Source: an uncultured Acidobacteriaceae bacterium (GTDB lineage Bacteria > Acidobacteriota > Terriglobia > Terriglobales > Acidobacteriaceae). Taken from it: 64,000 bases of DNA. A program made the translations under genes and the position numbers. Positions within the stretch are counted from its first letter, which is position 1, and each line of letters begins with the position of its first letter. Location of the stretch: the NCBI GenBank assembly GCA_963811095.1, contig CAWEQA010000018.1, positions 581,456 to 645,455 on the forward strand, written 5' to 3'. The notes beneath the pieces are model-generated. The model saw nothing but the letters and a program-made list of their open reading frames with translations, was not told where the DNA came from and ran no database searches. Shown piece after piece: positions 23,481-60,025 of this stretch.

Positions 23481-26400
23481 ATGGCTGATTTCTTACAGAC
23501 CGTGAAAGAACGCGTTGTCGTCTATGACGGCGCGATGGGGACCAACATCCAGAAGCGCAATCCTACCCTGGACGACTATTGGGGCAAGGAGAATTGCAGC
23601 GAAGTTTTGGTGTTGAGTCGTCCCGACATTATTCGCGAGATTCATGCGGATTTTTTCCGTGTGGGTTGCGACATTGTTGAAACCAATACCTTCGGCGGAA
23701 GCGGCATCGTGCTCGGGGAATTCGAGCTGCGCGATCGCGTTCACGAGATCAATGTAAAGGCGGCGCAACTTGCCAAGGAAGTGGCGCAGCAGTTCTCGAC
23801 GAAAGATCGGCCTCGCTTCGTCGCTGGGTCTATGGGCCCCACTACGAAACTGCCCTCGCTGGGGCACATCAGCTTCGACGCCATGGTCGCGTCTTACGAA
23901 GAGCAGGCCGCCGCTCTCATCGAAGGCGGCGTCGACGTGCTTCTCATCGAGACGGCGCAGGATCTGCTGCAGGTCAAGATCGCCACCATCGGTGTGCTGG
24001 AAGCCATGCGCAAGGCGGGCAAGCGACTGCCCGTACAAGTGCAGGTCACGCTGCAGGAATCCGGGACTATGCTGCTCGGCACGGAGATCGGCGCGGCTCT
24101 GACGGCATTGGAACCATTCGAAGTCGACGCGATTGGATTGAATTGTGCGACGGGACCGAAGGAGATGAACGATGCAGTTCGCTATCTCGGGCTGAACTCC
24201 ACGAAGGAAGTTTCGGTCCTTCCGAATGCGGGATTGCCGCAGAACGTCGGTGGCCATGCCGTGTACAAACTTTCGCCGGAGGATCTGTCCGAGTATCACA
24301 AACACTTCGTGCAGGATTACGGAGTCCGCATTGTGGGCGGCTGCTGCGGTACCACTCCCGAACATCTCAAAGCGGTGGTGGATGCGGTTTCCGGCGTGGA
24401 ACCTGCCAAGCGTGACGTCAAGCGCGCGGGCTCGGCCTCTAGCGCATACACGACCGTTCCACTTGATCTCGAACCCAAGCCGCTCATCGTCGCCGAGGAG
24501 ATGAACACCACGACGCGGGTCGAGCATTTCCGCAAACTAGTGCAGGGGAAGAAATACGACGAGATTCTGGGACTCGCGAAGCGACTGGTGAACGACGGGT
24601 CGCACATGTTGGATCTGTGCTGCGCGATTGTGGGCGAAGACGAGAAGGGATACATCACTTCCATTCTGGAAAAGATCGCCACTCGCGTTCCGGCACCGAT
24701 TCTGGTGGATTCGACCGAGGCTGATGTTGTGGAGGAGGCGCTCAAGCGCATTCCGGGCCGAGCCATCATCAACTCGATCAACCTGGAAGACGGCGAGAAG
24801 CGCACGTCAAAAGTGCTCCCCATGGCCAAGCGTTATGGCGCAGCCGTGATTGCGCTGACCATCGATGAAGACGGCATGGCCCTGACCGCGGACAAGAAAG
24901 TTGCGATCGCGCATCGCATCTACGATCTGGCCACCAAGAAGTACGGACTCGACGGCACGGACTTGATTTTCGACGCGCTCACCCTCCCGATTTCGACGGG
25001 GCAGGAGGAGTACCGCACGGCTGGAATGGAGACGCTCAAGGCAGTCGAGCGCATCAAGAAGGAACTGCCTTCGGTGAAGACGATCCTGGGCGTGAGCAAT
25101 ATCTCGTTTGGCCTGGATGCCTATCCGAGGCGGGTGCTGAACTCGGTGTTCATGCACGAAGCGGTGGATCACGGGCTCGACATGGCCATCGTGAATTACA
25201 CCAAGATTTATCCGTTGTACAAGATTCCGCAGGAAGAAGTGGAGTTGGCGCGCAAACTGATTCACCGCGACGCAAACTCCGATGGCGATCCGCTGCAGAA
25301 GTACATGGCGCACTTCGCGGGCATGAAGGGGAAGCCGGCCGCCTCGACCACTGCGCATCTCAACACACTGTCGGTCGAGGATAAGCTGAAGTTCTCCATC
25401 ATCAACGGCGAGAAATCCGTGGGCGAGGGCGCGCACAAGAAATCGTTGGAAGAATTGCTTGAAGAAGCACTCCTGAACTACTCAGCCCTGGAACTGATCA
25501 ACACTGTCCTGCTCGATGGCATGAAGACGGTCGGCGACTTGTTTGGCGCGCGCAAGATGCAGTTGCCGTCCGTGCTCGATTCGGCGGGCGTGATGAAGGC
25601 GGCGGTCGCCTATCTCGAGCCGAAGATGGAGAAGAAATCGGGGTCGCAACAGAAAGGCACGATCGTGCTGGCGACGGTGAAGGGCGACGTGCACGACATC
25701 GGTAAGAATCTGGTTGACATTATTCTGTCGAACAACGGATTCAAGGTTGTCAACCTCGGGATCAAGCAGCCGGGAGATACGATCATACGAGTCGGCGCAG
25801 GAACATCAGGCCGACGCGATCGGGCTGAGCGGGCTGCTGGTGAAGTCTACGCTCGAGATGAAGTACGTCATCCAGGATCTGGAGCGGCAGAAGCTTGCGT
25901 TCCCCGTCATCTGTGGCGGAGCCGCCCTTACGCGCAAGTATGTAGAGGACGACCTGCGCCGCGAGTACGCCAACGCCGTCTTCTACGCCGACGACGCGTT
26001 CGCCGGCTTGCACATCATGGAGGACCTCGCGACCGACAATGGGGCGAAACAGACGCGCCTGACCGAAGGCAAGACGGTAAAGGAATACGCCAAGGCCGCT
26101 GCGGTCGATGAAGAGACTGGACCAGTTTTTGCGGAGCGTAGTCCAGTCGTAGTAGATGCTCCGAACATTCCCACGCCGCCATTCTGGGGTGTGCGTGCGC
26201 GCAAGGATTACGATTTGCGCGAGTTGTTTCCATATATCAACGAGACCGCGCTATTCAAGAATCAGTGGCAATTGAAGACGGCTTCGCAGTCGGATTATGT
26301 GCGGCTGGTCGATGAGAAGTTCCGGCCGATTCTGCACAAGCTCGAAGATGAGGTGGTGGGGTCGGGATTGTTCGAACCCAAAGTCGTGTATGGCTACTTC

Positions 26401-26997
26401 CCTGCCCAGGCGGACGGGAACGACGTGATTGTGTATTCCGCAGAGGGGCAGCCGAGCTTGAGCTCGACCGGACAGCCGATGGCAGCCCCCACACGCGAAC
26501 TGTTGCGCTTCACGTTCCCTCGGCAGCGAGAGGGGCGCCGGCTTGCCATCTCCGATTTCTTTGCCCCCAAATCATCTGGAAAGATGGATGTGATTGGACT
26601 GTCGCTGGTAACGATTGGCTCGAAGGCTAGCGTGGAGACCCAGCGGCTATTTGAGGGTGGAGAGTACACAAAATATCTCTATCTGCACGGACTGAGCGTA
26701 GAAACGGCCGAGGCTCTTGCCGAGTTTCATCACAAGAAGATGCGTGAAGAGTTGGGCATCGCCGGGGATGACTCGGCGGAGATTCGCGACCTGTTTCACC
26801 AGAAGTATCGCGGGTCACGGTATTCGTTTGGGTATCCGGCCTGCCCGAATCTGGAAGATCAGACTAAGTTGTTCGCCCTGCTCAAGCCCGAGGAGAACGT
26901 GGGCGTGCGGCTGACGTCCGGGTTCTTGCTGGAGCCGGAGCAGTCCACTTCCGCGATTGTGGTGCATCATCCGGGGGCGAAGTACTTCGTGGTTTAG
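23481..26997 (+). pseudogene. metH: cobalamin-dependent methionine synthase, split by one extra nucleotide near 25785-25788
   Basis: ORF 23481..26111 carries the Hcy-methyltransferase, pterin-binding and B12-cap domains plus the DxHxxG motif (GDVHDIGKN). ORF 25714..26997, in the +1 frame, continues with AIGLSGLLVKS, ICGGAALT and the AdoMet-activation domain. Confidence 0.85.
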
Positions 26998-37357: not shown

Positions 37358-40300
37358 GTGCCTGAAAAACCGATTCCCGAGCAGGATCCGATCACCGGAA
37401 AATCGTACGCGATCCACTACTTGATCGCGACGGTGATTCTGATAGGTACGCTGTTCTGGGCTTTGTACGACGAAGCATGGGGACAGCGCCCGTGGAAGGC
37501 CTTCCAAGATCAATGGAAGGACCGCTACAGCGCTTTCCTCAATACTGCGACCTCCAAGTCCGCAAAGTCCGAGCAATCGGTCGAGCAGGATCCGCAATAC
37601 GCTGCCCTCAAGCAGGATTACGAGAAGGCCTATCAGGAGTCCAAGGCCAAGGGCGACGAGGCTCGCAAGAAGCTCGACGATGCCAGCGCCCGTCTGCTGG
37701 CCGTGCAGAGTGTATTCACCGACCGCCGTGCCTACGTGAACGCGCTCACCTACGAGTTGGAAACGAGCACCAGCGACTCGGCGAAGGCCAGCAAGAAGAA
37801 GGACATCGATTCCTACAAAGATGAACAAGCGTCGGTCGAGTTTCCGGACGGCACCAAGCAGAAGTTTACGTTCCCGCAGTTGGAGGAGAAGTACAACGAG
37901 ATCCGCGATGAGCGGACCAAGCTGAGCCTCGAACTGGGCGATGTTCTGAAGCCGGTCACCGCGGCCAAGGCCAAGATGGACGAATACGTCTCGGACCACA
38001 TGGTCGACCTGACGCCGCAGCAAATTCAGGGGCTGAAGAAAAGAGCGTCGGACTGGGATCCGGCCATTGTGCAGATCAACGTGGCCGAGGCGAACATCGT
38101 GGACCGGTGCGAGTCCTGCCACATGAACACGCGCGAGCCACTGAAGATTACAGAAGCCGCAATGATGGCCAAAGGCGAGAAGCACCCGGATGAGTACGCC
38201 CAAGCCTTTGCCAGCCATACCGAACCAGAGTTGTTGTCGATTCATGATCCGGAGAAATTTGGATGTTCGCCGTGTCACCAGGGCAATGGGCGGGCGACCA
38301 CCAGCGTCGAGAAGGCGCACGGTAATTATGAACACTGGCTGTGGCCGCTTTATCCCAAAGAGAATTCGCAGGCGGGTTGCCAGTCGTGCCACTCCGCTGA
38401 CATGGTGCTGGCCAGCGGCGACGTTCAGTTCAACACCATCAACAACGGCAAGGACTTGTTCCGGCAGCGCGGCTGCATGGGCTGCCATCGCTACGAGGGC
38501 TACGACCGAGAACCCGAAGACCTGAATTCTGTCGGGCAGCAGATCAAGCAGATCGAGACGCAGAAGAAAGAAAACGTTAAGAGCTCGGCAGATTTGATGA
38601 AGCAGGCCGACGCCGCCGAATCAAACGACGAAGCCAACGCGCTCAACGTCAAGGCCGTCGATCTGAAAGTGGCTAACAGCAGGCTGGACGCCCGTTTGCA
38701 GCAGCTCGACTTTCAGTCGCACAGCCTGATGCAGGACCAGAAAAAGGTCGGCCCGAACCTGAAAGACGTCCGGCTCAAGCTAAACAAGAACTGGATTCCG
38801 GTCTGGCTGAAAAAGCCATCTGACTTCCGGCCGACTACGAAGATGCCGAACTTCCGCCTGACCGACCATCAGATTCAGGCCATCTCGGCGTACATCTGGC
38901 AATCCGGATTCACCGACGAACTCCCCAAACATAAGCCCGGAAACGCCGCTCACGGCAAAGAACTATTCGAAGAGCGCGGATGCCTTGCTTGCCACTCGAT
39001 TGGCGAGGGCGACCAGATGCAGGGTGGGGTGTTTTCAGCTAACTTGACCCGCGTCGGCGAAAAGGCGAATTACGACTATCTTGTGCGCTGGATTCACAAC
39101 GCGCGGCAGCGCACTCGACCGTATTGCCCGTACGAGAAAAAAGACATTGGTCCCGAAGATTACGCCAAGAAGGGACTGCCCTACGTATTCGACCTGGATC
39201 ATAGCCGCTGCCCGAACGACGGACACGAACTACAAGTGCAGAATATGACGGTGATGCCGAGCCTGCGCCTGAGCCCCGAGGATGCAGAGGACATCGCCAC
39301 GTATCTGATGACGCAGAAGAAACAGGAACCGTCGTCGTATCCGGACGCTTCGTTCATGGATGATCCGGCGCTGAAAGCGGAAGGAAAGAAGTGGGTCCGG
39401 TATCTATGGCTGCGGTGGGTGCCACGAAATTTCGGGCATGGAGGACGAAGGGCGCATCGGCACGGAACTGACGTATCGAGGGCAGCAAGCCAATCGAGCG
39501 TCTTGATTTCGCTCTATTCACCGACGTCGCGCAACGCGGCGGCAAGGGCTCGGAGCCGATCAAGGACAAAGATGATCTGGCACGCCTGCCCGATGGTCCT
39601 GCGACCGAACCTTGGTACGACCACAAAGGATTCTTCGAGCACAAACTCGCCGAACCGAATATCTACGATCAAGGCAAAGTGAAGGGCGAGACCGAAGCTC
39701 TGCGCATGCCGAACCTGCACCTGACGAAAGATCAGGTTCTCGATCTCACGACTTTCCTGTTGGGCAGCCAGGAGACTTCCCTGCCCCAGAGCTATCAATA
39801 CAAGCCGGGTGATGCGCGCCATGACATTCAAGAGGGCTGGTGGATCGTCAAGAAGTACAACTGCATGGGATGCCACCAGTTCATCCCCGGCCAGCGCACG
39901 ATCCTGATGGGCCTCAAGCAATATCAGGACGTACAGGAGCAATTGCCACCGAAGTTACTGACCGAAGGCGCCCGCGTCGATCCCGAATGGCTGCGGAAGT
40001 TCCTTTCGAATCCGGCGCTCAGCACCACGGACACGAACCGAAACGGCGTGCGCCCGTATCTGAAAGTTCGCATGCCAACGTTCTCGTTCTCAGACAACGA
40101 ACTGCGAAAGCTGGTCCGATTCTTCGAAGCTTTGTCGCAGCAACCCCTTCCCTACATTCCGGAAGAGGTACCAACGCTCACGGCCAAAGAAACAGACATG
40201 GCCCGCAGCCTGTTCTCGAGCACGGCGGCGCCCTGCCTGAAGTGCCACGCTACAGGCGATCCGTCACACGATAAGATCGCCACCGCGCCGAATTTCCTGC

Positions 40301-48536: not shown

Positions 48537-49589
48537 TTAAGTGTGGTGGGCTACCGCCGCATCTTCCGCCGGATAATCGAACTGCGCCAGAAACTCGAAG
48601 GCCGGGGGATTTTCCCGCTGCCAGCCAATCGTCCGGCGGATCGCTTCCTCAATCGCCACAGGCTCTTTGTATCCCAGTTCGTGACGGAGGCGCTCCGAAC
48701 TCGCTGTCCAATGCTGGGCCGCATTGCCCGGCTTCAGCAGGTGACGCGGCGTGCGCTCCACCGGCAATAAAACGAACTCCCCATCCCACTTCATCTCGCT
48801 GGCGATTTTCCGTGCCCACTCCAGTTCGCTGAACGACGGTTCCTCGCACACGTTATAGATACGTCCCGCGGCGCGATCGTCCGTGGCGGCCAAGGCGATG
48901 GCAGCCGCCACGTTCTCCACGTACCCTCGGGGCGAGCGCCACGCGGCCAGCATGTCGGAAAAAATGATGTGGCGCCGTCCATCGGCGATGCGCTTCACCA
49001 CGGGATAAAAGCGATGCAGCGGATCCCCAGGGCCGTACACCATCGGCAACCGGAGCACCGTCCCGGGAAGTTCGAGGTCATTCATCACGATGCGCTCTGC
49101 CGGGATCTTGTCGTAGTCGTCCGTCGCCCAGGAGAAAATCTTGCGCATCCCCTGCAAGACTGCGGGGGGGTAGGGATGCAAGCTGCGGCGCAACTCCGAA
49201 TCTTCAGTGAGCGGCACTTCCAGAAGCGGACCATCTTCGGTGCCCTGCGAAATGCCGATCGCGCGGTACACGTCCATGCTGCTCAGCATGACTACGCGCC
49301 GCGCTGCGCCACGGAAGACGTCCATCAGGCGTTCGGCCTGCGGACCCGAACTGAGGACCAGGTCAATGACCAATTCGGGAGCAAATCGCTTCAGTTCCTC
49401 AGCACTTGCATTCAGCTGGTTATGGTCACCTCGGATCTCATCGACCCCGGCGGGCGCGGCCGTCGTGCCCCGATGAAACACCGCAACGGTGTGCCCTTGC
49501 TGCTTTAATGCAGCAACAACAAACCGCCCAATGAAGCCATTTCCACCAATAAGTAGGAGGCGCATAGGTACAGTCAACGCATCACGCAA
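48537..49589 (-). CDS. NAD-dependent epimerase/dehydratase family protein
   Basis: N-terminal LLIGGNGFIGRF Rossmann motif, 350 aa. Confidence 0.8.
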   Translation of the reverse strand: MRDALTVPMRLLLIGGNGFIGRFVVAALKQQGHTVAVFHRGTTAAPAGVDEIRGDHNQLNASAEELKRFAPELVIDLVLSSGPQAERLMDVFRGAARRVVMLSSMDVYRAIGISQGTEDGPLLEVPLTEDSELRRSLHPYPPAVLQGMRKIFSWATDDYDKIPAERIVMNDLELPGTVLRLPMVYGPGDPLHRFYPVVKRIADGRRHIIFSDMLAAWRSPRGYVENVAAAIALAATDDRAAGRIYNVCEEPSFSELEWARKIASEMKWDGEFVLLPVERTPRHLLKPGNAAQHWTASSERLRHELGYKEPVAIEEAIRRTIGWQRENPPAFEFLAQFDYPAEDAAVAHHT

Positions 49590-50141: not shown

Positions 50142-52064
50142 TTACGGATGCAGGAACCAGGGCGTCGTCGTATCGTCGGTCTTGAAGAAATTCAGGATCT
50201 GCCCAGCCACCTTGAGATCTCCTGCCGGGAACGAGGGATGTGTACCGTCCGATTGCAGGTCCTGGCATGTCCATACAAATCCGTCACTGCGCCCCAGCAA
50301 TCCATTGGCCCAGTAATACGGTCCCCACGACATCCACGGAGCTTTGACCGCTCCCAGCGCGGGGTTGTAATTCAGGTTCGCGTTGCCATTCAGCTGGTCG
50401 TTGATGGCATTCTTCACGGCAAAGCCGGCTTCGTAGGCGTAAGGCTCAGGATCAATCTTTGCCACGCCATTCGAATAGCCCGCATAAATGCGACTGGAGA
50501 AATATACCAGCTTCGCATTGGGGAAGAACGTGTGCACGTTGTTCATCTCGGTTTCATAGTTCCCCTGCATCTGGGTCATGTCGCCCGGAAACGTCCCTTT
50601 CGCGATGCCATTGGTGTCTTCAATCCAAACCGCGACGACCTGCTGTGCGGTCACTCCCTGATCGGGCAGGTAATTGTTCAAAATCGTATTCCAGTACGGC
50701 GAACTGGTCGATGACAGCAGGTTCGGTGTAGCTCCGCCCTGAGCACCCGACACGAACACAAGGGCAGGGTTGATCGCCGGATCGGTTCGCGCGAGTGCCA
50801 GGAACTCGGCAAATTCATCGAGCGCCGTGGATTCTCCCAGCGCCAGCATGACGTCCTTTCCTGTCGGGCTGTAGTTGCCATTGCCATCCAGCGGCACAAT
50901 GGCTTTGGCGAATGCAACGCCGTCGGAATCATGCGAGGCCGGACGCACGTTGCTGCCATTGGGATAAAGGCCACCCTCCTCACCTTGATAGATTCCGGTT
51001 GCAAGGTCAGTGATGGGGACGATGGGCGTCGTCGTGTTTGGAATGTTGTACGAGATGTTGTTGCACACCGCGCCCGTCGTCTTGGCCACCGTCAGGGTAA
51101 ACAGCTTGGTCACATTGAACTTGGCGGAGTCCTTCACTCCAGCGGTAAACGTATAGTTACCGGCGGTCACCGTTGCGGCGACCGTTCCGCTGATCAGGCC
51201 CGCGCTGGAAAGCGTAAGGCCTGCAGGCAACGTGGAACCCGGCTTCAGGCTGAAGGTGTAGGGCGGCGTTCCCGCAGCGGCGAGCAGCGCGGCTTGGTAG
51301 GCCGCGTTCTGAGTTGCCGTGGGCAGCGTCGTAACGTTGAGGAGCGACAAAGAAGTGGCCACCGAGCCGTTGCCGCTCAGATCCACGACTTGCGTCGGAA
51401 CCTGATCGAAAGTGAACGCGATCACCCCGGTCTCCGAGGTGACCATCGTGGGGCTGTAGCCGACGCTGATCGTTTTACTCGAGCCGGCATTGATGGTAAT
51501 GGGCAAACTGACGGGTACGATGGCGAAGGTCGGCGGCGTAATCGTGATTCCCTGCAACTTTACAGCAGCAGTTCCCGTGTTGGAAATCGTGATTAACTGT
51601 GTCGCGCTCGCAGTTCCCTCAGGCTGATTGGGAAAGTTCAACGAAGTTGGACTCGAACTGACCACCGCCTGCGACTGAAGGCCAGTTCCCGTCACAGGCA
51701 CCTGCAACGGATTTCCGGTCTGCTGCGTCAGCGTGTAATCGCAATTGAATTTCTTCGCCACATCCGGGGCAAAGTACATCGAGTAGGTTGTGGTCTTACT
51801 TGGCGCCAGTGTAAACGGCGTTTGGCCTGATGCCAGCTTGAACTCCGGACAATTTAAGGTAATGGCCGTGATCGTGGTGGTCGTCGTACCTGTGTTCCTG
51901 ATCGTAATCGTCTTGGTGGTCGTGCTCATCCCGATGTACGTACTGGTAAATGTCAGAGAGCTCGGGCTAGACGTAATCTGCGCTGAGATGGTAACGAGGA
52001 AAAGCGCGCTGATTAAGAAGGAGTTGGCAAAACATAAACGGACTCGGCGCATGACAGCAGGCAT
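50142..52064 (-). CDS. secreted multidomain protein: Ig-like (choice-of-anchor-D-like) repeats plus C-terminal SGNH/GDSL-like esterase domain
   Basis: Signal peptide. Two repeats of the form SSPSSLTF...ITIRNTG. A putative Ig segment LPTATQNAAY...PPYTFSL. C-terminal LALGEST and DGTHP resemble SGNH blocks I and V. Confidence 0.65.
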   Translation of the reverse strand: MPAVMRRVRLCFANSFLISALFLVTISAQITSSPSSLTFTSTYIGMSTTTKTITIRNTGTTTTTITAITLNCPEFKLASGQTPFTLAPSKTTTYSMYFAPDVAKKFNCDYTLTQQTGNPLQVPVTGTGLQSQAVVSSSPTSLNFPNQPEGTASATQLITISNTGTAAVKLQGITITPPTFAIVPVSLPITINAGSSKTISVGYSPTMVTSETGVIAFTFDQVPTQVVDLSGNGSVATSLSLLNVTTLPTATQNAAYQAALLAAAGTPPYTFSLKPGSTLPAGLTLSSAGLISGTVAATVTAGNYTFTAGVKDSAKFNVTKLFTLTVAKTTGAVCNNISYNIPNTTTPIVPITDLATGIYQGEEGGLYPNGSNVRPASHDSDGVAFAKAIVPLDGNGNYSPTGKDVMLALGESTALDEFAEFLALARTDPAINPALVFVSGAQGGATPNLLSSTSSPYWNTILNNYLPDQGVTAQQVVAVWIEDTNGIAKGTFPGDMTQMQGNYETEMNNVHTFFPNAKLVYFSSRIYAGYSNGVAKIDPEPYAYEAGFAVKNAINDQLNGNANLNYNPALGAVKAPWMSWGPYYWANGLLGRSDGFVWTCQDLQSDGTHPSFPAGDLKVAGQILNFFKTDDTTTPWFLHP

Positions 52065-52367: not shown

Positions 52368-53672
52368 CTACGCGACTTGGCTTTCGCCGTCGTGCAAACT
52401 GATGGGTGGGGTTGCAGGTCTCGCCACGACTTTTTCGGGTTCTCTGGCGAGAAACTCCTTAGGACAAATCAGCGCCAGAACCGGCGTCGTCATAAAGGTT
52501 GTAAACAACGCCATGATGACCATCATCGAAAACAGAGCGGGTGAGATGACACCGATATCGAGGCCGATGTTGAGAATCACCAACTCCATCAGGCCCCGCG
52601 TATTCATGAGCGTGCCCAGCCCGGCCGCTTCCCGCAGAGGGATTCCGGTCAGCCATGACGCTAACGTAGACCCACCTAACTTGCCGACCGTCGCCACCAG
52701 AATAATCAGGCCGCAGTACATCCACATCTCCGGCCCCTTGACTAGGCCGATATTGGTGCGCAATCCGGTGAAGGCAAAAAACAAGGGCAACAGCAGAGTT
52801 ACCGTGATCGTCTCAAAGCGGTCGAGGACGTATCGCACAAAATGTCTTTGCTTCGGCATGATGGCGCCCATGAGGAAGGCGCCGAAGAGCAGATGAATGC
52901 CGAGGTACTCGGTGCAGAGAGCTGAGACCAAGACGAGGAGCAGCATCAGCGCCATCAGGTTCTCGCTGAGCTCGCCCTTTGCTTTGTAGACCCGCTCGTA
53001 GCCGCGCAACAGCCGTCGCACCCCGTAGATCATCACCAGACCAAACACCCCGATGCCGCCAATCGTGATCCAAATGGAGGTGGAAGAGTGGGCCGAGCGG
53101 ATCAGCACGACGATGTACGCCAGAATGCACCAGCCGGTGACATCATCAACTGCGGCGCATGCAATGGCGACCGTTCCCAGCCGACTGCCCAGCATATTTC
53201 GCTCTGCAAGAATTCGTGCCAGCACCGGAAAGGCGGTGATGCTCATGGCCGCACCCATGAACAACGCAAAATTCGTAAAGGCGACGCTGTCATCCGATAG
53301 TCGGGGATAGAGATAAAGGGCAAGGAACGCGGCCAGAACAAACGGAGCGGTGATGCTGACATGACTGGTCAGCACCGCCGCGTGGCCCTGCTTCTTGAGT
53401 TCCCTCGGATTAATTCCCAAGCCCACGAGGAACATGAATATGACAACCCCGACCTGGCTCAATGCGTTCAAGAAACCGAGGCTGGCGGCGGGAAACAGGT
53501 ACGCGGAGGAATGAGGCGCGATCCATCCGAGAAGGGATGGCCCCAGCATAATGCCGGCAAACATTTCACCCACGACACGCGGCTGATGGATCTTGCGGAA
53601 GAGTTCCCCGACCAGTCGGCACACTGCGAGAACAACCGCAATCTGCAGGACGAGCGTAAACAGATTCGGCAT
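52368..53672 (-). CDS. CPA2-family cation:proton antiporter (Kef/NapA-like membrane domain only)
   Basis: 434 aa, about 12 TM helices, typical GPSLLG and AAVDDV motifs. Confidence 0.85.
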   Translation of the reverse strand: MPNLFTLVLQIAVVLAVCRLVGELFRKIHQPRVVGEMFAGIMLGPSLLGWIAPHSSAYLFPAASLGFLNALSQVGVVIFMFLVGLGINPRELKKQGHAAVLTSHVSITAPFVLAAFLALYLYPRLSDDSVAFTNFALFMGAAMSITAFPVLARILAERNMLGSRLGTVAIACAAVDDVTGWCILAYIVVLIRSAHSSTSIWITIGGIGVFGLVMIYGVRRLLRGYERVYKAKGELSENLMALMLLLVLVSALCTEYLGIHLLFGAFLMGAIMPKQRHFVRYVLDRFETITVTLLLPLFFAFTGLRTNIGLVKGPEMWMYCGLIILVATVGKLGGSTLASWLTGIPLREAAGLGTLMNTRGLMELVILNIGLDIGVISPALFSMMVIMALFTTFMTTPVLALICPKEFLAREPEKVVARPATPPISLHDGESQVA

Positions 53673-54166
53673 CAGTGCGCTCCTCCCGCTGAACTCTTCG
53701 GCTGCCTCGTCGCATGAAACTCGACGGGTGTGCAGGATGAGCAGGCGCTCACTATCAGCACCCCGGTCAACGATCTCGGATCGGACTTGGGATCAACCGT
53801 GGCAGTGAGCGCCAATGACCGATCGGCGCAGTCGCTCGAGGAATCGCGCACTGGAACGATCGAGGCCTTCAGGGTCTTGCCATCGAGCGCTCCCGAGGCC
53901 ACGGTCTTCGAGGGGTTGTTGAAGGCCAAGACGAGGTTCTTGCCTGATTGAGAGATCCCCACGGAACTGTTCGAGAGCGACGCCAGCGTCTTAGCGCAGG
54001 ATCCACCCGACAGGCGGCTGGCGTCCGCTTCAATTTTCCAAACGCCATCCACCGAAATCGGCGCCGTCAGGGTGCGACCGGTCCGCAGGACTCCCGCCAG
54101 TCCCAGCAGCGGCAATCCAACGAGCAGAACGTACGCCACTACGAAATTGCGGCTCGTGTGCGACAT
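53672..54166 (-). CDS. membrane-anchored hypothetical protein with four Cys
   Basis: 164 aa, one N-terminal TM helix, beta-rich remainder. Its stop overlaps the antiporter ATG (ATGA at 53672). Confidence 0.55.
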   Translation of the reverse strand: MSHTSRNFVVAYVLLVGLPLLGLAGVLRTGRTLTAPISVDGVWKIEADASRLSGGSCAKTLASLSNSSVGISQSGKNLVLAFNNPSKTVASGALDGKTLKASIVPVRDSSSDCADRSLALTATVDPKSDPRSLTGVLIVSACSSCTPVEFHATRQPKSSAGGAH

Positions 54167-54298
54167 CGTGCCCTCTTTAGCTTTGGAACTGAACCCCGGG
54201 GGAACCAGAATACCGCGTGATAGCTTACACCGAAAACGACGGAAGTCCGATCGTAAAATCGGACTTCCACCACTTTTTTCTGCAATCTCGGCCGGGAA

Positions 54299-55651
54299 CT
54301 ATACCTGCGGCCGGAAAGCATCGGAGGTCAAATTCCCCAGCAGTTTATGCCACGGGTGCTTCTCGTTCTGCTCTACCTTCGAAACCATCTGCTTCATCTT
54401 GGTCAGCACTTCCGGCGCTTCTTCGTCATACACGTCGCCCTGAAGCAGCTTAAGCACGTCCAGCCGGTAGTTCTTGTCGCTGATGAAGTAGGTGAACAAT
54501 ACGTTCAACCGGTAGTACACCGAGATGAACTCGTACCAGTTCTTGGTCCCGCGGCGTAGCTTGGTTTCGTAGTCGACGAAGCTCGCGCGCGAGAAATCAT
54601 TCTTCTCGATGGCCGCAAGAATGTCTTTATGCGCGAACCGCGAGCTGTTGAGCGCGATGCTCACGCCGGTGGAGAAGATCGGATCGACGAAGCGTCCCGC
54701 ATCCCCTACCAGCATGAAGCGGTCTCCGGCCAACTGCTTCATCGCGTAGCTGTAGTCGCCTTCTTCCTTGAAAGGACGAATGCGATCGGACTTCTTCAGC
54801 GTCTCCGCGATCAAAGGCCGGCTGCCCACCGTCTCCCAGAAGAACTTCTCGCGGTCTTCCTTCGACTTAGCGAAGTTCTTCTTCTGCGTGACTACGCCCA
54901 GACTGGTAACCGTGTCTGTGATCGGAATCTGCCAGATCCAGGTGTTCGAGATCGGCAGGAAGTGGATATAGATGTAATCCAGATTTGTATCGCGCTTCGC
55001 GAACACCTTGCGGTCGTAACCGTCGAACCAGGAGTGAATGGCGTACTGGTCGAACACCGTGTCTTTGACCTTCAGCTTGAGCTGGTTGCCGAGGAACGTC
55101 TGGCGGCCGCTGCAGTCCACCACCATCTTGCAGCTGACGCTCATTTCCTTCGGGCCAATATTGAAATAAACTTCCGGATGCTCGGGACCGAAGTCGACGC
55201 GCCCGACCTTGACGCCGTCGTACACCGTTGCGCCCAGCTTCTGCGCGTGCTTCAACAGCATCAGGTCAAACTTGCCGCGGTCTACATGGTAGGTATAGTT
55301 CCGGTCCTCCATACCTTCCTGCTTGCGTTCTTCGAAACGGATGTCGACGTTGTAGTCCGGCGCCAGACCCTCGAGGTCGTGCACATAGCCCGGATTTTCA
55401 TCGTTAGTGGTCCAGACCGCACCGAACTTGTGCGGGAATTTCGCCTCCTCCATCTGCGGGAGGAAGTCGAGATCCTTGAACACACGGGTCGAAGATGGAA
55501 CGAGCGACTCGCCCACGTGCGGGCGCGGGAACAACTCACGTTCGAACACGACGCACTTGACGCCGGCTTTCGCCAGGTAGCACGCCATGCTCGATCCGGC
55601 GGGTCCGCCGCCAATGATGCCTACCTCAAAATCAGGGACTGAATGATTCAT
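54299..55651 (-). CDS. flavin-dependent halogenase-like FAD enzyme (phenol/pyrrole-type), copy 1
   Basis: GIIGGGPAGS (GxGxxG), WIWQIP (WxWxIP), FVDPIFSTG (FxxPxxSxG), HVGESLVP. Confidence 0.75.
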   Translation of the reverse strand: MNHSVPDFEVGIIGGGPAGSSMACYLAKAGVKCVVFERELFPRPHVGESLVPSSTRVFKDLDFLPQMEEAKFPHKFGAVWTTNDENPGYVHDLEGLAPDYNVDIRFEERKQEGMEDRNYTYHVDRGKFDLMLLKHAQKLGATVYDGVKVGRVDFGPEHPEVYFNIGPKEMSVSCKMVVDCSGRQTFLGNQLKLKVKDTVFDQYAIHSWFDGYDRKVFAKRDTNLDYIYIHFLPISNTWIWQIPITDTVTSLGVVTQKKNFAKSKEDREKFFWETVGSRPLIAETLKKSDRIRPFKEEGDYSYAMKQLAGDRFMLVGDAGRFVDPIFSTGVSIALNSSRFAHKDILAAIEKNDFSRASFVDYETKLRRGTKNWYEFISVYYRLNVLFTYFISDKNYRLDVLKLLQGDVYDEEAPEVLTKMKQMVSKVEQNEKHPWHKLLGNLTSDAFRPQV

Positions 55652-55735
55652 ATCTCTGCCTTCTCCCAGTGTCTTTGCTATGCCGCCGAGCCCAGCGGCC
55701 GCGAGCGGCGAGCCGGGCGCGGTTGCCGTTCCTGC

Positions 55736-57100
55736 CTAGGCTGAAGCTTCCACAAACGCATCCGCCGTGAGATCTCCAAGGAAGCCGTGCAGCGCGTGAT
55801 TCGGATCCTTCTCCACCTGCTGCACGATGTTCCGCATGCGGGTCAGAACTGGCGGCTCGGCATCCTCGTATACGTCTCCCTGCAGAAGCTTGAGCACGTC
55901 CAGGCGGTAGCGCGGATCCTGCACGAACGCCGTAAACAACACGTTCAGGCGGTAGTACACGCTGATGAAGTTGTACCAGTTGCGGGTGCCGCGCTTGAGC
56001 GTGGACTCATAGGTCTGGAACGATTCGCGGCTGAAGTTGCCCGTCTCGAGCGCGCCGATGATGTCCTTGTGCGCGAATCGTGAACAATTCAACGCGATGC
56101 TCACGCCCGTGGAAAAGATCGGATCCACAAAACGTCCCGCATCGCCGACCAGAACCAGGCGATCGCCGGCCAGTTGCTTCATGGCGTAGCTGTAGTCGCC
56201 CTCGTCTTTGAACGCGTGCATCTGCTCCGAACCCTGCGCCTTCAGCCCTTCGTACAGTTCGGGCCGGCTCTTAATGCAGTCCCAGAAGAATTTCTCGCGC
56301 GACTCCTTGCTCTTGGCGAAATTCTTCTTCTGCGTGACCACGCCGATGCTGGTGATCGTATCGGTGATCGGAATCTGCCATACCCAGGTGTTCGTGATCG
56401 GCAAGAAGTGGATGAAAATGAAATCGCCCTGCGTCTGCTTGTTGGAAGCCATGCAGCGCCGGTCATACCCGTTGAACCAGGTGTGGATGGCGTACTGGTC
56501 GAAATGGTCGTCCTGAATGCGCCACTTCAGCTGGTTGCCGACCAGAGTCTTGCGCCCGCTGGCGTCGACCACGATGCGGCAGGTCGTACTCATCTCTTTC
56601 TTGCCCATCGTGTATTGCACGGCAGCGCAATTCGGATCGCTGAAATCCACGCGATTGACGCCGATCCCTTCATACACCTTGGCGCCGAACTGGTTGGCGT
56701 GCTGCAGCAGCATCAGGTCAAACTTGCTGCGGTCCACGTGATAGGTATAGTTCTGGCCGACCCCAGGCTGGGTCCGCTCTTCGAAGCGGATATCGACGTG
56801 GCAGTCAGCCGACACGCCGCCGAAATCCATGTTGTACACCTTGGCATCCGAGGCCGCCGTCCAAGCCGCGCCAAACTTGTGCGGAAACTTGGCTTCCTCC
56901 ATCTTGGGCAGGAAGTCGAGATCCTTGAACACCCGAGTCGAGGACGGTACCAGCGACTCTCCCACGTGTGGACGGGGCATCAACTCGCGCTCAAACACCA
57001 CGCAGTTAATGCCAGCTTTGGCCAGGTATGCCGCCATGCTCGAACCTGCAGGGCCGCCTCCAATGATTCCTACTTCAAAATCGGGCACAGAGGATTTCAT
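55736..57100 (-). CDS. flavin-dependent halogenase-like FAD enzyme, copy 2 (tandem paralogue)
   Basis: Same motifs (WVWQIP, FVDPIFSTG). Collinear with copy 1 over its whole length. Confidence 0.75.
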   Translation of the reverse strand: MKSSVPDFEVGIIGGGPAGSSMAAYLAKAGINCVVFERELMPRPHVGESLVPSSTRVFKDLDFLPKMEEAKFPHKFGAAWTAASDAKVYNMDFGGVSADCHVDIRFEERTQPGVGQNYTYHVDRSKFDLMLLQHANQFGAKVYEGIGVNRVDFSDPNCAAVQYTMGKKEMSTTCRIVVDASGRKTLVGNQLKWRIQDDHFDQYAIHTWFNGYDRRCMASNKQTQGDFIFIHFLPITNTWVWQIPITDTITSIGVVTQKKNFAKSKESREKFFWDCIKSRPELYEGLKAQGSEQMHAFKDEGDYSYAMKQLAGDRLVLVGDAGRFVDPIFSTGVSIALNCSRFAHKDIIGALETGNFSRESFQTYESTLKRGTRNWYNFISVYYRLNVLFTAFVQDPRYRLDVLKLLQGDVYEDAEPPVLTRMRNIVQQVEKDPNHALHGFLGDLTADAFVEASA

Positions 57101-57664
57101 ATCTGCTGTCTTCTCCCCAAGATGTTTGCTCGGAATTCGATCATTTCTGTCGGATTGGTTTGTTTTTTCAACTGGATTCTGAGAGACAAAGTCGCCTTCC
57201 CACCTGACGCCAGAACAACACCCAACTCGTGCGGGAGAGAGGCAAGAATGTTACAGAATCGTTTAGAGGGGGAACGCTACTTTTACCGTCGCGCTGTGTT
57301 CCCCTATTTAACCAAAAGTCGGCCGCTTCGCCAAGCATGAAAATATTTGCACATTTACTGATCGTGTCAGCAGTTCCCTGAGGGAGAGCACCATCGAGCC
57401 AGATAGTAACCTGCAGGTAATCTATCAGTTACGGATTGCGGTAAGCGATTGTTTTCAAGGGAATAAGCGAACACGCTTTACTTTGCAGCAAAGAAGCACA
57501 CCGGCTTTTGCCTGCTGCGTAAAACCCTCCGGAAATGTCGGCCCGGATGCGGCGTGGAATCGAGCATTCGACCAGAGTTAGGCATTCATTTGACAGTCCG
57601 CATCGAGCGTGACAACATGGCCGTCACGGAGTACACTTCCCGTCTCCTCCCCCCAACGTTCTCT

Positions 57665-60025
57665 ATGGATTGTTTTCCAACCGAGGATCCCTTGCGAAAA
57701 TTCTTGTCTTCCGTGGTGTCTTGTCTGTTCGTTGCCTCAGTCTTGTTCCCCCTGGCGGGGTGCATCGCCCACGCCCCAAGCAAGAGTGGGGGAGGAGGCG
57801 GCAACCAGCAAACGACTGTGACGGTGACGCCCACGGCCGCCACCGTATCGGGCGGAAGCACGACGACGTTTACCGCCACGGTAACCGGACCACAGGAGAC
57901 AGCGGTGACGTGGAATGTAAACGGCATCCAGAACGGGAATTCGACGGTTGGCACCCTGACCGCCGGGACGAACTCTTCTGGCACCACGACAGCGGTTTAC
58001 ACGGCGCCAACGACGGTTCCAACCCCGCCGACCGTCTCAATAACAGCGGTTTCGGTCGCTAACAACACGAGTTCAGCACCATCGACGGTAACGATAACGC
58101 CATCGACGGTCAATGTGGCTATCTCGCCCACTACCGCCACTGTCGACGCCGGAACGACTCAGACGTTCACTGCCACCGTGACGGGAACCACGAACTTTGG
58201 TGTTGGTTGGTATGTAAATGACATCTTGAACGGCAACTCGAGCGTCGGAACGATCACCGCCAGTAGCACTTCTACAGGATCGACGGCCATCTACACGGCT
58301 CCTACGGTCGCGCCGTCAAATGCGTTCCCCGCCACGATCACCGCCGTGTCGGTCGCTGACGCAGGAGCGGTGGGCACGGCAGTCGCGACAATTCCGCCGA
58401 TTGTCGTCACACTTTCTCCCGCGTCGGGGGTGTCCATACCCGTAAGCGGAACTCAAGAGTTCACAGCGACAGTGACCGGCACTGGCGACACCGCAGTCGT
58501 GAATTGGCAGGTGAACGGGATCTCCGGAGGCAACTCCAACATAGGCACGATCGCTCAGACAAGTTCGAATGCGGCCGTGTACACCGCTCCGGCGACTGTC
58601 AGCGCATCTCCGTTCATCATTACAATTAGCGCCGTCTCAGGGGCCGACTCATTTTCCATCGGGCAGATCCAAGGTAACGTGCATGTGACGGTCAGTATTT
58701 CCCCCGCCACCGATTCGATCGGGCAAGGTGCTAACCTGCAGTACACAGCGACTGTAAATGGTGCCCCAAACACTGCCCAAGGCCAAGATGTCGTCTGGAG
58801 CGCGAGTTGTCCCACGTGTCAAGGCGGACAAACCGGAGGCACGTTCGACCCAAATAATCCTGGGCTTTATGTTGCGCCGGGGCTCCAGCAGGGAACGACC
58901 TCTGCAACGGTGACCGTAACCGCGACGCCGAATTTCGATCCAACACAACCAGGCACGGCGACCATGAATGTACAGCAGACGGACCCATTGGGCACTGTTT
59001 CTAACGTTCAGTCCCTGTCTCCGTCCCAATGCCCGGCTGACTCAAACGGCAAGCTGACGAACGGAACCTGCTACTCGATGACGGTGTCCTGTGATGGGGT
59101 CTCGGATTTGACGAGCTACTTGAAAGTGAACGCAACAGCCACTCCCGTCGGAACGGTGCTTTTCCTGATCGGCGGTGGCGGAAATGGCCTGTACGACTCC
59201 AACCCATCGTGGGCGTATGGATATGAGGCGGTGGAAAATGTCTTTAACGCGAACTTCAACACCGTTCAGGTCTCGTTCGGCCTTCCCTTTAACGCCAACC
59301 AGCCCAACGGTTGGCTCCAAGGGCCGGGTGGAGTCCGCCGTTTGGCTTGCCGCTACGCCACAGTCGCCGATTGGGTCTACAACAACCCGAAAATGATTAA
59401 CCCAGGCACCTCGTCCACGACGAGCGCGCCATTCTGCGCAACTGGGAACAGCGGAGGATCCGGAGCCTTGGCTTACGCGGCGTTTGAGTATGGGCTGGCG
59501 GGCGCTGCCTCCACGGGTCCGACCCAAGAGTTCAGCTTCATCGAACCCACAAGTGGTCCTGTTATGACTCGACTCGATCAAGCTTGCGTCTGCAACAATA
59601 ACGCGATGGGGCCGAAAGGACCCTGCACGACTGATACCGGTCCCACGCCGATGTGTTTCTCGCCGTCCGAAGCGGCTATTATCGATCCGGCGTACCAGGT
59701 CCAAGGGCAATCTAACCAACCCACCCTATGCTCGAACGGGCTCAGCGGAACGGATACCGCAAATGCGAATCGGTTTGCGTCCGATAGCATTGAGTATGCG
59801 CCGAATAACGCTCTTCCCATTCCCCTTTCCAAGTCAGTAATCGTCAACATGCGGTTCGGAGGTTACGACACAACGACAGCCGTGCCTCAGGGCGAGGTGT
59901 GGTGGGGAGCCGTCAGCCCCAAGCCGACGGCGCCAGCGTGTTCGGAATCCGCAGGGCATGAAATTCCCGACGACAACCAGGGTGCAATCGACATTGCGAA
60001 TGACATCGTCACGGGGTGCCACTAG
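57665..60025 (+). CDS. lipoprotein with four Ig-like (Big_2-like) repeats and a C-terminal alpha/beta-hydrolase-like domain
   Basis: ATG 57665 gives the lipobox LFPLAGC. Four ~95-aa repeats of the form T.TFTATVTG....V.W.VNG...GNS.VGT.....YTAP. GxSxG-like GNSGG lies in the C-terminal domain. Confidence 0.7.
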   Translation: MDCFPTEDPLRKFLSSVVSCLFVASVLFPLAGCIAHAPSKSGGGGGNQQTTVTVTPTAATVSGGSTTTFTATVTGPQETAVTWNVNGIQNGNSTVGTLTAGTNSSGTTTAVYTAPTTVPTPPTVSITAVSVANNTSSAPSTVTITPSTVNVAISPTTATVDAGTTQTFTATVTGTTNFGVGWYVNDILNGNSSVGTITASSTSTGSTAIYTAPTVAPSNAFPATITAVSVADAGAVGTAVATIPPIVVTLSPASGVSIPVSGTQEFTATVTGTGDTAVVNWQVNGISGGNSNIGTIAQTSSNAAVYTAPATVSASPFIITISAVSGADSFSIGQIQGNVHVTVSISPATDSIGQGANLQYTATVNGAPNTAQGQDVVWSASCPTCQGGQTGGTFDPNNPGLYVAPGLQQGTTSATVTVTATPNFDPTQPGTATMNVQQTDPLGTVSNVQSLSPSQCPADSNGKLTNGTCYSMTVSCDGVSDLTSYLKVNATATPVGTVLFLIGGGGNGLYDSNPSWAYGYEAVENVFNANFNTVQVSFGLPFNANQPNGWLQGPGGVRRLACRYATVADWVYNNPKMINPGTSSTTSAPFCATGNSGGSGALAYAAFEYGLAGAASTGPTQEFSFIEPTSGPVMTRLDQACVCNNNAMGPKGPCTTDTGPTPMCFSPSEAAIIDPAYQVQGQSNQPTLCSNGLSGTDTANANRFASDSIEYAPNNALPIPLSKSVIVNMRFGGYDTTTAVPQGEVWWGAVSPKPTAPACSESAGHEIPDDNQGAIDIANDIVTGCH

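Follow-up and report, generated by a model that had tools for sequence, protein, structure and literature searches.

A tandem pair of PltA-type flavin-dependent halogenases in Acidobacteriaceae, most likely part of a split, antiporter-associated gene cluster for a halogenated metabolite

Introduction

The flavin-dependent halogenase (FDH) PltA acts on pyrrolyl-S-PltL (PMC6424973), and Mpy16 and ChlB4 act, or are postulated to act, on substrates tethered to carrier proteins (PMC8407142). In Streptomyces sp. JCM9888, two adjacent genes encode the ChlB4-like halogenases AcmX and AcmY, of 449 and 438 amino acids (aa), at a distance of about 1 Mb from the cluster for ascamycin; a Na+/H+ antiporter gene is part of that cluster (PMC4257720). 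This study concerns two adjacent minus-strand genes, here called halA and halB, in a 64,000-nucleotide stretch (hereafter the window, about 64 kb) of contig CAWEQA010000018.1 (positions 581,456 to 645,455, assembly GCA_963811095.1) from an uncultured Acidobacteriaceae bacterium. A survey of soil halogenases comes near in concept (PMC4926216); no description of this acidobacterial halogenase locus was found in the literature searched. What is new here is most likely the presence of PltA-type halogenases in a split, antiporter-associated acidobacterial cluster for a halogenated metabolite.

Results

halA and halB encode halogenases of the PltA structural type

The original prediction, which was made from the sequence alone, described two minus-strand open reading frames (ORFs) of 450 and 454 aa, and both lie exactly where it had placed them (Table 1). 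Each starts with ATG. The two products shared 307 of 450 residues in BLASTP (68% identity, 81% positives, E = 0), so that the accompanying description of paralogues with most positions identical by eye was slightly generous in wording and correct in substance. The similar stretches resembling a ribosome-binding site (RBS) also read as quoted, namely ggggagaagacagcagatATG ahead of halA and gggagaaggcagagatATG ahead of halB. No terminator-like site was detected by a terminator scan of the 84-nt spacer between the genes, and this terminator-free spacer fits their co-transcription. The numbers of sites found in promoter and terminator scans of the window did not exceed the shuffled expectation, and the sigma-70-like promoter match upstream of halA is weak for this reason.

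Both products were hit by the Pfam family Trp_halogenase (PF04820) at 102-104 bits against a cut-off of 21 (E = 3.8e-29 for halA and 8.9e-30 for halB). In phmmer searches of the PDB, halA matched Mpy16 (5BUK, 7e-172), ChlB4 (7FCO, 7e-169) and PltA (5DBJ, 2e-162), and halB matched the same three proteins at 3e-171, 4e-171 and 2e-168, respectively. These matches spanned the full length (residues 4-447) at 54-58% identity, and the next ones, to CndH, Bmp2, CmlS and RadH, followed at 1e-28 to 1e-40. The AlphaFold2 (AF2) model of halA was confident along the full length (predicted local distance difference test, pLDDT, 82; predicted template modelling score, pTM, 0.86) and superposed on ChlB4, Mpy16 and PltA with template modelling (TM) scores of 0.88-0.94 and root mean square deviations of 2.1-2.8 Å over about 440 columns, including the C-terminal helical region. 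In Foldseek, the model retrieved ChlB4 at the top and halogenases at all of ranks 1-40 except for one unannotated flavoprotein (3NIX); the first geranylgeranyl reductase appeared at rank 41, under all halogenases.

The FDH signatures GxGxxG, WxWxIP and FxxPxxSxG are present in both proteins, as had been noted, in the form of GGGPAG, WVWQIP or WIWQIP, and FVDPIFSTG, together with HVGESLVP and FPHKFG. Among 222 environmental homologues, the motif for binding flavin adenine dinucleotide (FAD), WxWxIP and FxxPxxSxG are invariant except at the x positions, and HVGESLVP and FPHKFG too are invariant or nearly so. Lys75 in FPHKFG, which the prediction had assigned to the catalytic Lys region, aligns with the Lys of PltA (FPKKFG), Mpy16, ChlB4 and CndH (FPIKRG, chain position 76) and is invariant in 222 of 222 homologues. 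In FVDPIFSTG, S-T-G is preceded by Phe329 in all 222 homologues, and PltA, Mpy16, ChlB4 and CndH likewise have Phe there. We take this position to be that of Glu346 in PrnA; the Lys/Glu pair of tryptophan halogenases is therefore not expected in halA and halB. Signatures specific to the environmental proteins are His74, where PltA has Lys, and Thr331, where PltA has Ser.

Other flavoprotein families were considered and rejected. Tryptophan halogenases (PrnA/RebH type, variant A) matched residues 9-77 only, that is the N-terminal FAD motif, with E-values of 1e-4 to 1e-5 for PrnA and Thal. The geranylgeranyl reductase model TIGR02032 scored 112-116 bits against a cut-off of 158.8, and fold matches to these reductases ranked below the halogenases. 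The NCBIfam models of Ubi-type hydroxylases scored far under their cut-offs, and those of LodB/GoxB and QhpG also scored under theirs; all of these ranked lower than the halogenases. The CmlS equivalog of NCBIfam scored 160 against a cut-off of 900, and the two proteins are therefore not CmlS orthologues. Instead of reductases or hydroxylases with a lost Lys, halogenases with the Lys retained came top in both the sequence and the fold comparison. By sequence and modelled fold, halA and halB are predicted to be functional two-component FDHs of the PltA/Mpy16/ChlB4 structural type; their catalytic apparatus is intact.

The two genes belong to old lineages under strong purifying selection

In a neighbour-joining tree of 226 sequences with CndH as outgroup, built without bootstrap, the 222 environmental sequences formed one clade next to, and outside, PltA and (Mpy16, ChlB4). 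Lineage A of this clade comprised halA, single copies embedded in clusters, single copies adjacent to antiporter genes, and orphans of Actinomycetota, Gemmatimonadota and Polyangiaceae. Lineage B was confined to Acidobacteria and comprised halB and both copies of a second tandem type, the upstream gene of which formed its own subclade within this lineage. The downstream genes of the two tandem types are thus orthologues of each other, and the duplication is old. A tandem pair of separate origin was observed in an Actinomycetota metagenome-assembled genome (MAG; locus L046, 9959-12798, plus strand), where both copies belong to lineage A and are followed by a STAS-domain gene, with no antiporter or cassette; its two copies are each other's closest relatives, indicating an independent duplication.

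The ratio of nonsynonymous to synonymous substitution rates (dN/dS, Nei-Gojobori) against 20 orthologous loci was 0.03-0.10 for halA and 0.01-0.075 for halB, and for the neighbouring genes described below it was 0.02-0.11 (antiporter) and 0.14-0.30 (p164), all of these values being rough because dS is near 1, close to saturation. Purifying selection on both halogenase genes is strong. The halA and halB clades have different fixed residues at 35 positions, several of them just past Lys75 (79, 82, 84, 90, 91 and 93), a pattern that fits a division of labour between the two enzymes.

The pair is orphaned in the window but adjoins a prolyl-type carrier cassette in some related genomes

A greedy gene call of the window gave 62 ORFs of at least 60 aa, and the 60 ORFs other than the halogenases were scanned against Pfam. 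None of these contained a PP-binding, AMP-binding, ketosynthase or condensation domain, nor an acyl-CoA dehydrogenase, PF00975 thioesterase or flavin reductase domain, and clustering of a prolyl-AMP ligase, a carrier protein or a prolyl-carrier dehydrogenase with halA and halB was not observed within the window. This absence of partner domains makes halA and halB local orphans. The original prediction had reported no gene for a polyketide synthase, nonribosomal peptide synthetase (NRPS), carrier protein, thioesterase or flavin reductase in the window, and the Pfam scan and a tblastn search agree with it. Its term orphan is correct at the scale of the window only, as in some related genomes orthologous pairs are joined by a cassette.

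This cassette consists of a hexapeptide transferase, a dehydrogenase resembling prolyl-acyl carrier protein (ACP) dehydrogenase, a PltF-like adenylation enzyme and a carrier protein. The best match of the dehydrogenase was prolyl-ACP dehydrogenase (4IRN, 1.3e-148), followed by generic acyl-CoA dehydrogenases (9e-95), and the best stand-alone match of the adenylation enzyme was the L-proline-[L-prolyl-carrier-protein] ligase PltF (6O6E, 1.2e-108), with DltA at about 1e-68. In three Terriglobia loci (L034, L020 and L025), genes with Hexapep, acyl-CoA dehydrogenase, AMP-binding and PP-binding domains (Pfam) lie downstream of a single halogenase gene, the product of which shares 85-87% identity with halA and is placed as sister to the halA clade. 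The same four genes come directly after a tandem pair of halA-like and halB-like genes (83% and 87%) in L077 of another acidobacterial genome. On the 76-kb contig of L167, the whole set lies on a single strand in the order hal454-hal450-p164-Na_H_Exchanger-Hexapep-hal3-Hexapep-ACAD-AMP-binding-PCP (ACAD, acyl-CoA dehydrogenase; PCP, peptidyl carrier protein), and GVIDSLG is present in the PCP of this locus as in the small cassette ORFs. The cassette lies 5 kb upstream of the hal-p164-antiporter locus in L043; in L094 the adenylation gene abuts the p164-antiporter genes, the antiporter being 92% identical to that of the window. On one contig of 100,897 bp, the cassette (L166) is about 48 kb from the tandem-hal-antiporter locus (L080), in a region of NRPS-like and polysaccharide type with a NusG paralogue, A-PCP and P450-A-PCP-TE proteins (A, adenylation; TE, thioesterase) and glycosyltransferases. 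A Polyangiaceae locus (L069) has the classical set of halogenase, adenylation enzyme, ACAD and PCP.

Several further observations were made in these loci. The third halogenase gene of L167 (6300-7772, plus strand), located between the two hexapeptide-transferase genes, encodes a CndH-like protein of 490 aa that is 35% identical to CndH and 29-30% identical to halA and halB, so that some relatives possess two types of halogenase and three such enzymes in all. A cluster lacking halogenases is conserved in Sulfotelmatobacter-like genomes (L166, 8167-21575; L168, 6155-21587) and contains a NusG paralogue, HTH_8, Hexapep, the prolyl-ACP-dehydrogenase-like enzyme, A, PCP, A-PCP, P450-A-PCP-TE, a glycosyltransferase and C-A-PCP-TE (C, condensation); in L166 it adjoins the polysaccharide genes Wzz and Poly_export. 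Homologues about 71% identical in Gaiellaceae (L083-L085) and Gemmatimonadota (L081-L082) are surrounded by genes for purine biosynthesis, glyoxalase, EamA, GNAT, glycosyltransferase and UvrA. No carrier-protein machinery lies within reach of these homologues, and they are the most convincing orphans in the clade.

p164 and a CPA2-like antiporter are the constant neighbours

Downstream of halB, the window carries genes for a small conserved protein, p164, and an antiporter that is probably of the CPA2 family (Table 1). Halogenases lay upstream of this gene pair in about 160 related loci, and layouts were counted in 79 loci from GTDB species genomes, retrieved with halogenase queries, and in 66 metagenome loci. 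The layout hal-hal-p164-antiporter was present in 49 of the 79 genome loci, and a halogenase lay beside the antiporter in 62 of the 79. A reciprocal metagenome search with the antiporter as query gave 66 loci with enough upstream sequence, in 53 of which one or two halogenases were directly upstream; the other 13 p164-antiporter loci had no halogenase and no remnant of one. As p164 precedes the antiporter in all loci examined, and 13 loci are free of halogenases, the p164-antiporter pair is what stays constant, and the number of halogenase copies beside it varies between 0, 1 and 2. The neighbourhood, whose conservation the prediction had proposed as a check, is thus conserved, though the constant partners in cis were not as expected, being a small membrane protein and a CPA2-like antiporter. 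The outer flanks of the locus are conserved in the closest relatives only. In the sister contig L001, halA is identical and its neighbours are 93-98% identical; the nearest named genomes, all peat MAGs, are Acidobacteriaceae palsa_142 (99% identity in halA), palsa_252 (98%) and Candidatus Sulfotelmatobacter (96%). Related loci came from palsa, SPRUCE peat, permafrost and Danish soil, in MAGs and metagenomes, and none from cultured organisms.

p164 generated no hit in Pfam or NCBIfam and was not assigned to a family, and its 307 homologues are all annotated as hypothetical. The AF2 model (pLDDT 82.7) showed an 8-stranded beta domain, for which Foldseek gave weak matches only, to FABP/CRABP, streptavidin and the PvdP barrel (TM 0.4-0.5). 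The antiporter matched Pfam Na_H_Exchanger (PF00999) at 2.8e-59, well over the cut-off, and NapA (4BWZ) in the PDB at 2e-22; its score of 162.7 bits with the CPA2 model TIGR00932 is under the cut-off of 238.3.

The 132-nt gap between halB and p164 contains a hairpin with a perfect 11-bp stem, which is terminator-like when read on both strands and is followed by GTCGTTTTCGG on the minus strand. Its arm GGAAGTCCGAT was found exactly in 11 closely related loci, and the corresponding intergenic regions of 103 loci show strong secondary structure (median minimum free energy per nucleotide, -0.35). The hairpin may act as a terminator or attenuator between the halogenase pair and the p164-antiporter pair.

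Remaining gene content of the window

The rest of the window is occupied by housekeeping genes, including those for MetH, isocitrate dehydrogenase, TonB-type outer-membrane proteins, a UbiD-family decarboxylase, Nramp and MgtE, and further genes for MacB, ABC-2, SSB, Fpg, NrdR, ferrochelatase and cytochromes. Neither the UbiD-family decarboxylase gene (15161-16723, plus strand) nor that of a 774-aa multihaem cytochrome c (37358-39682, plus strand) travels with the halogenases in related loci. Large Thr/Ser-rich proteins with Ig-like repeats (He_PIG, ASH, HYDIN and I-set domains) are encoded on either side of the halogenase locus (50142-52064, minus strand; 57554-60025, plus strand). Ig-like proteins also follow the cluster in L077 and L167, possibly just reflecting the abundance of such genes in these genomes.

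Two genes gave signs of possible sequence errors. The methionine synthase gene (23481-26997, plus strand) looks frameshifted, being covered by two overlapping ORFs in different frames that together have the normal length of MetH. One, of 876 aa, contains the domains S-methyl_trans, Pterin_bind and B12-binding_2 as well as a truncated B12-binding domain, and the other is of 427 aa (25714-26997); this may be an assembly indel rather than biology. The NAD-dependent epimerase ORF of 350 aa (48537-49589, minus strand) corresponds to a gene call of 229 aa in a different frame in L001 (17533-18222), a discrepancy that suggests indel errors in one of the assemblies.

Table 1. Coordinates of the features at the halogenase locus, numbered from the first letter of the window
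Feature	Position	Strand	Description
Antiporter	52368..53672	-	putative CPA2-family cation:proton antiporter, NapA-like, no KTN/RCK domain; start overlaps p164 stop
p164	53672..54166	-	small conserved protein; N-terminal transmembrane helix and domain of ~130 aa with 4 invariant Cys
Hairpin	54241..54268	-	perfect 11-bp stem in halB-p164 gap
halB	54299..55651	-	downstream flavin-dependent halogenase, 450 aa, lineage B
halA-halB intergenic spacer	55652..55735	-	84 nt; RBS-like GGGAG at 55663-55667, read from sequence
halA	55736..57100	-	upstream flavin-dependent halogenase, 454 aa, lineage A of environmental PltA-like clade
RBS-like GGGGAG and spacer	57101..57118	-	before halA ATG; read from sequence
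Sigma-70-like promoter match	57342..57370	-	CTGACA-17-AATATT, 9/12; upstream of halA; consensus scan only

Discussion

A probable proline-derived substrate and split cluster

The cassette is contiguous with orthologous halogenase pairs in some relatives and located elsewhere in others, so the window can be read as the halogenase half of a split biosynthetic cluster. We consider it probable, with moderate confidence, that this is the case and that halA and halB halogenate a proline-derived, carrier-bound substrate of pyrrole type. The action of PltA on pyrrolyl-S-PltL is consistent with a carrier-bound substrate. The most likely substrate would be a pyrrole-2-carbonyl (or dehydroprolyl) thioester that is derived from proline and attached to a small carrier protein. 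The hexapeptide transferase, prolyl-carrier dehydrogenase, PltF-like adenylation enzyme and PCP of the cassette would produce it, and in the genome of the window the halogenases would act on it in trans. An unlinked flavin reductase would supply reduced FAD (FADH2), which would react with O2 to form a flavin hydroperoxide; this would oxidise chloride or bromide to hypohalous acid, which would be guided to Lys75, and electrophilic substitution on the electron-rich ring would follow. The scheme of flavin hydroperoxide, hypohalous acid and Lys is established FDH chemistry.

As the paralogues are of ancient origin and carry different fixed residues close to the active site, non-redundant roles are probable, for example halogenation of different ring positions or successive halogenations. 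p164, as a membrane-anchored beta-barrel, and the antiporter might, speculatively, take part in binding, export or tolerance of the product, or in ion homeostasis.

Several points weigh against a proline-derived substrate made by a split cluster. Cassette proteins from sister loci gave no tblastn match in the window, most of the 79 genome loci have no cassette inside 10 kb, and the lineage-A homologues of Gaiellaceae, Gemmatimonadota and other Actinomycetota lie among housekeeping genes with no carrier machinery nearby. The identity of the window halogenases to PltA, Mpy16 and ChlB4 is only 54-58%, and because Mpy16 and ChlB4 share 67% identity although the substrates proposed for them differ, identity cannot fix the substrate. 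The dehydrogenase of the cassette is closest to AnaB (4IRN), and AnaB stops at pyrroline-5-carboxyl-ACP, not pyrrole (PMC3252866). The tree carries no bootstrap support, and the near-saturated dS makes the selection estimates rough.

Alternative explanations

The same absence of carrier machinery, in the window and inside 10 kb in most related loci, would be accounted for by a diffusible small molecule that needs no carrier protein, such as a free pyrrole, a phenol, a nucleobase or a soil-derived aromatic compound, and the orphan homologues in housekeeping contexts of other phyla would fit this as well. For AcmX and AcmY, which are closely related to ChlB4, chlorination of a free adenine nucleoside is postulated (PMC4257720), but this role is a postulate only. 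All biochemically characterised close relatives use, or are proposed to use, a tethered substrate, and in L077 and L167 the orthologous pairs adjoin adenylation, PCP and dehydrogenase genes. The original prediction had called the substrate probably free-standing; in view of these tethered relatives, and of the PltF-like, carrier and dehydrogenase genes next to orthologous pairs in related Acidobacteriota, we regard this as unlikely. A tethered substrate might also be another aromatic acyl-S-carrier protein, of salicyl or hydroxybenzoyl type, provided by one of the NRPS-like enzymes found alongside the cassette. halA and halB are as similar to ChlB4 (55-56% identity) as to PltA (54-56%), the TM scores are 0.88-0.94 for all three proteins, and the halogenase-free clusters of L166 and L168 hold the additional A-PCP, P450-A-PCP-TE and C-A-PCP-TE proteins. 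It is the prolyl-type trio, however, and not the larger NRPS-like genes, that is most tightly and repeatedly linked to halogenases, which makes a source other than proline very unlikely.

By far the commonest layout, hal-(hal)-p164-antiporter (62/79 loci; 53/66 in the reciprocal search), raises the question of a self-contained module in which the halogenases serve with p164 and the antiporter on a membrane or envelope compound, or in halide- or pH-linked physiology in acidic peat. p164 models as a beta-barrel of small-ligand type, and the clusters for ascamycin and fluorometabolites contain Na+/H+ antiporter genes as well. That fold match is weak, however; the 13 of 66 p164-antiporter loci without a halogenase or its remnant show that the pair works without halogenases, a hairpin separates halB from p164, and the module of L167 lies within the carrier-protein cluster instead of being an alternative to it. 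Such a module therefore appears highly improbable. A related proposal is that p164, as a calycin-like membrane protein, forms a conserved functional unit of peat and soil Acidobacteriaceae with the two halogenases and the antiporter, making, binding and handling a halogenated metabolite that would be common in these highly abundant, uncultured bacteria. This is unlikely; the direct role of the antiporter and p164, which might consist of halide or proton supply, product binding or self-protection, would be without counterpart in known halopyrrole pathways. If the proposal is true, specific organohalogens in peat would have in this lineage a widespread biological source that has gone unrecognised. 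That the genes are decaying or non-catalytic relics, by analogy with halogenase homologues of lost activity, has a practically negligible probability: the partner genes are locally absent, as would be expected of relics, but the ORFs are full-length, the model is confident over its full length, the FAD-binding, halide and Lys motifs are invariant, and dN/dS is 0.01-0.10 across species with dS near 1. The relic reading is effectively refuted by the invariance of the motifs in 222 homologues and these dN/dS values.

Implications

The halogenase locus is conserved in more than 60 species-level genomes and strongly constrained by purifying selection, which points to a halogenated natural product of common occurrence in these habitats. 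Its carriers are of the Acidobacteriaceae or Candidatus Sulfotelmatobacter type. The locus bears on natural organohalogen formation in soils, and also on natural-product discovery in Acidobacteriota, from which few metabolites have been characterised. Many new PltA-type halogenases are available in the clade, and its two long-separated paralogue lineages may differ in regiochemistry. The locus further serves as a worked example that partner genes missing from a window do not imply a free-standing substrate, since comparative synteny found the missing half of the pathway.

Comparison with known systems

PltA (pyoluteorin, Pseudomonas; 5DBJ) resembles halA and halB in size and motifs, in the Lys of FPxKFG and the Phe of FVDPIF-S-xG, and in fold (TM 0.89-0.94), and the neighbours in sister loci match PltF, PltL (a PCP) and a prolyl-carrier dehydrogenase. 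It differs in that the identity is 54-56%, the window proteins falling in a separate environmental clade; its partner genes have no counterparts adjacent to the pair in the window; and one enzyme does both chlorinations, whereas the window has two paralogues. Mpy16 (marinopyrrole; 5BUK) is the best sequence match, with 58% and 57% identity and E-values of about 1e-171, but it lies inside a compact Streptomyces cluster. It shares the role of pyrrolyl-S-carrier-protein halogenase with Bmp2 (5BVA), which is much more distant from the window proteins (E of about 1e-33 to 1e-36). ChlB4 (chlorothricin; 7FCO), the top Foldseek match at 55-56% identity, has as its postulated substrate an enzyme-tethered 6-methylsalicyl unit and not a pyrrole, so the PltA/Mpy16/ChlB4 clade is not restricted to pyrroles.

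AnaB/AnaC/AnaD, for the anatoxin-a starter unit, and PltE/PltF/PltL have the same three functions as the halogenase-linked cassette, although the acidobacterial cassette always adds a hexapeptide-repeat transferase and lies outside the window. The 'Halo_AMP' clusters of sponge symbionts (bioRxiv 10.64898/2026.08.03.742642), some of them acidobacterial, likewise combine an FDH with a stand-alone adenylation enzyme, but they represent a different locus, with FDHs that are Bmp2-like or of phenol type, accompanied by P450s, in marine sponge symbionts. AcmX and AcmY resemble halA and halB in being an adjacent pair remote from the cluster that they are thought to serve; they belong to another phylum, and their role in chlorination of adenine C2 is only postulated. 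Their position 1 Mb from that cluster is a precedent that fits halogenases acting away from their cluster.

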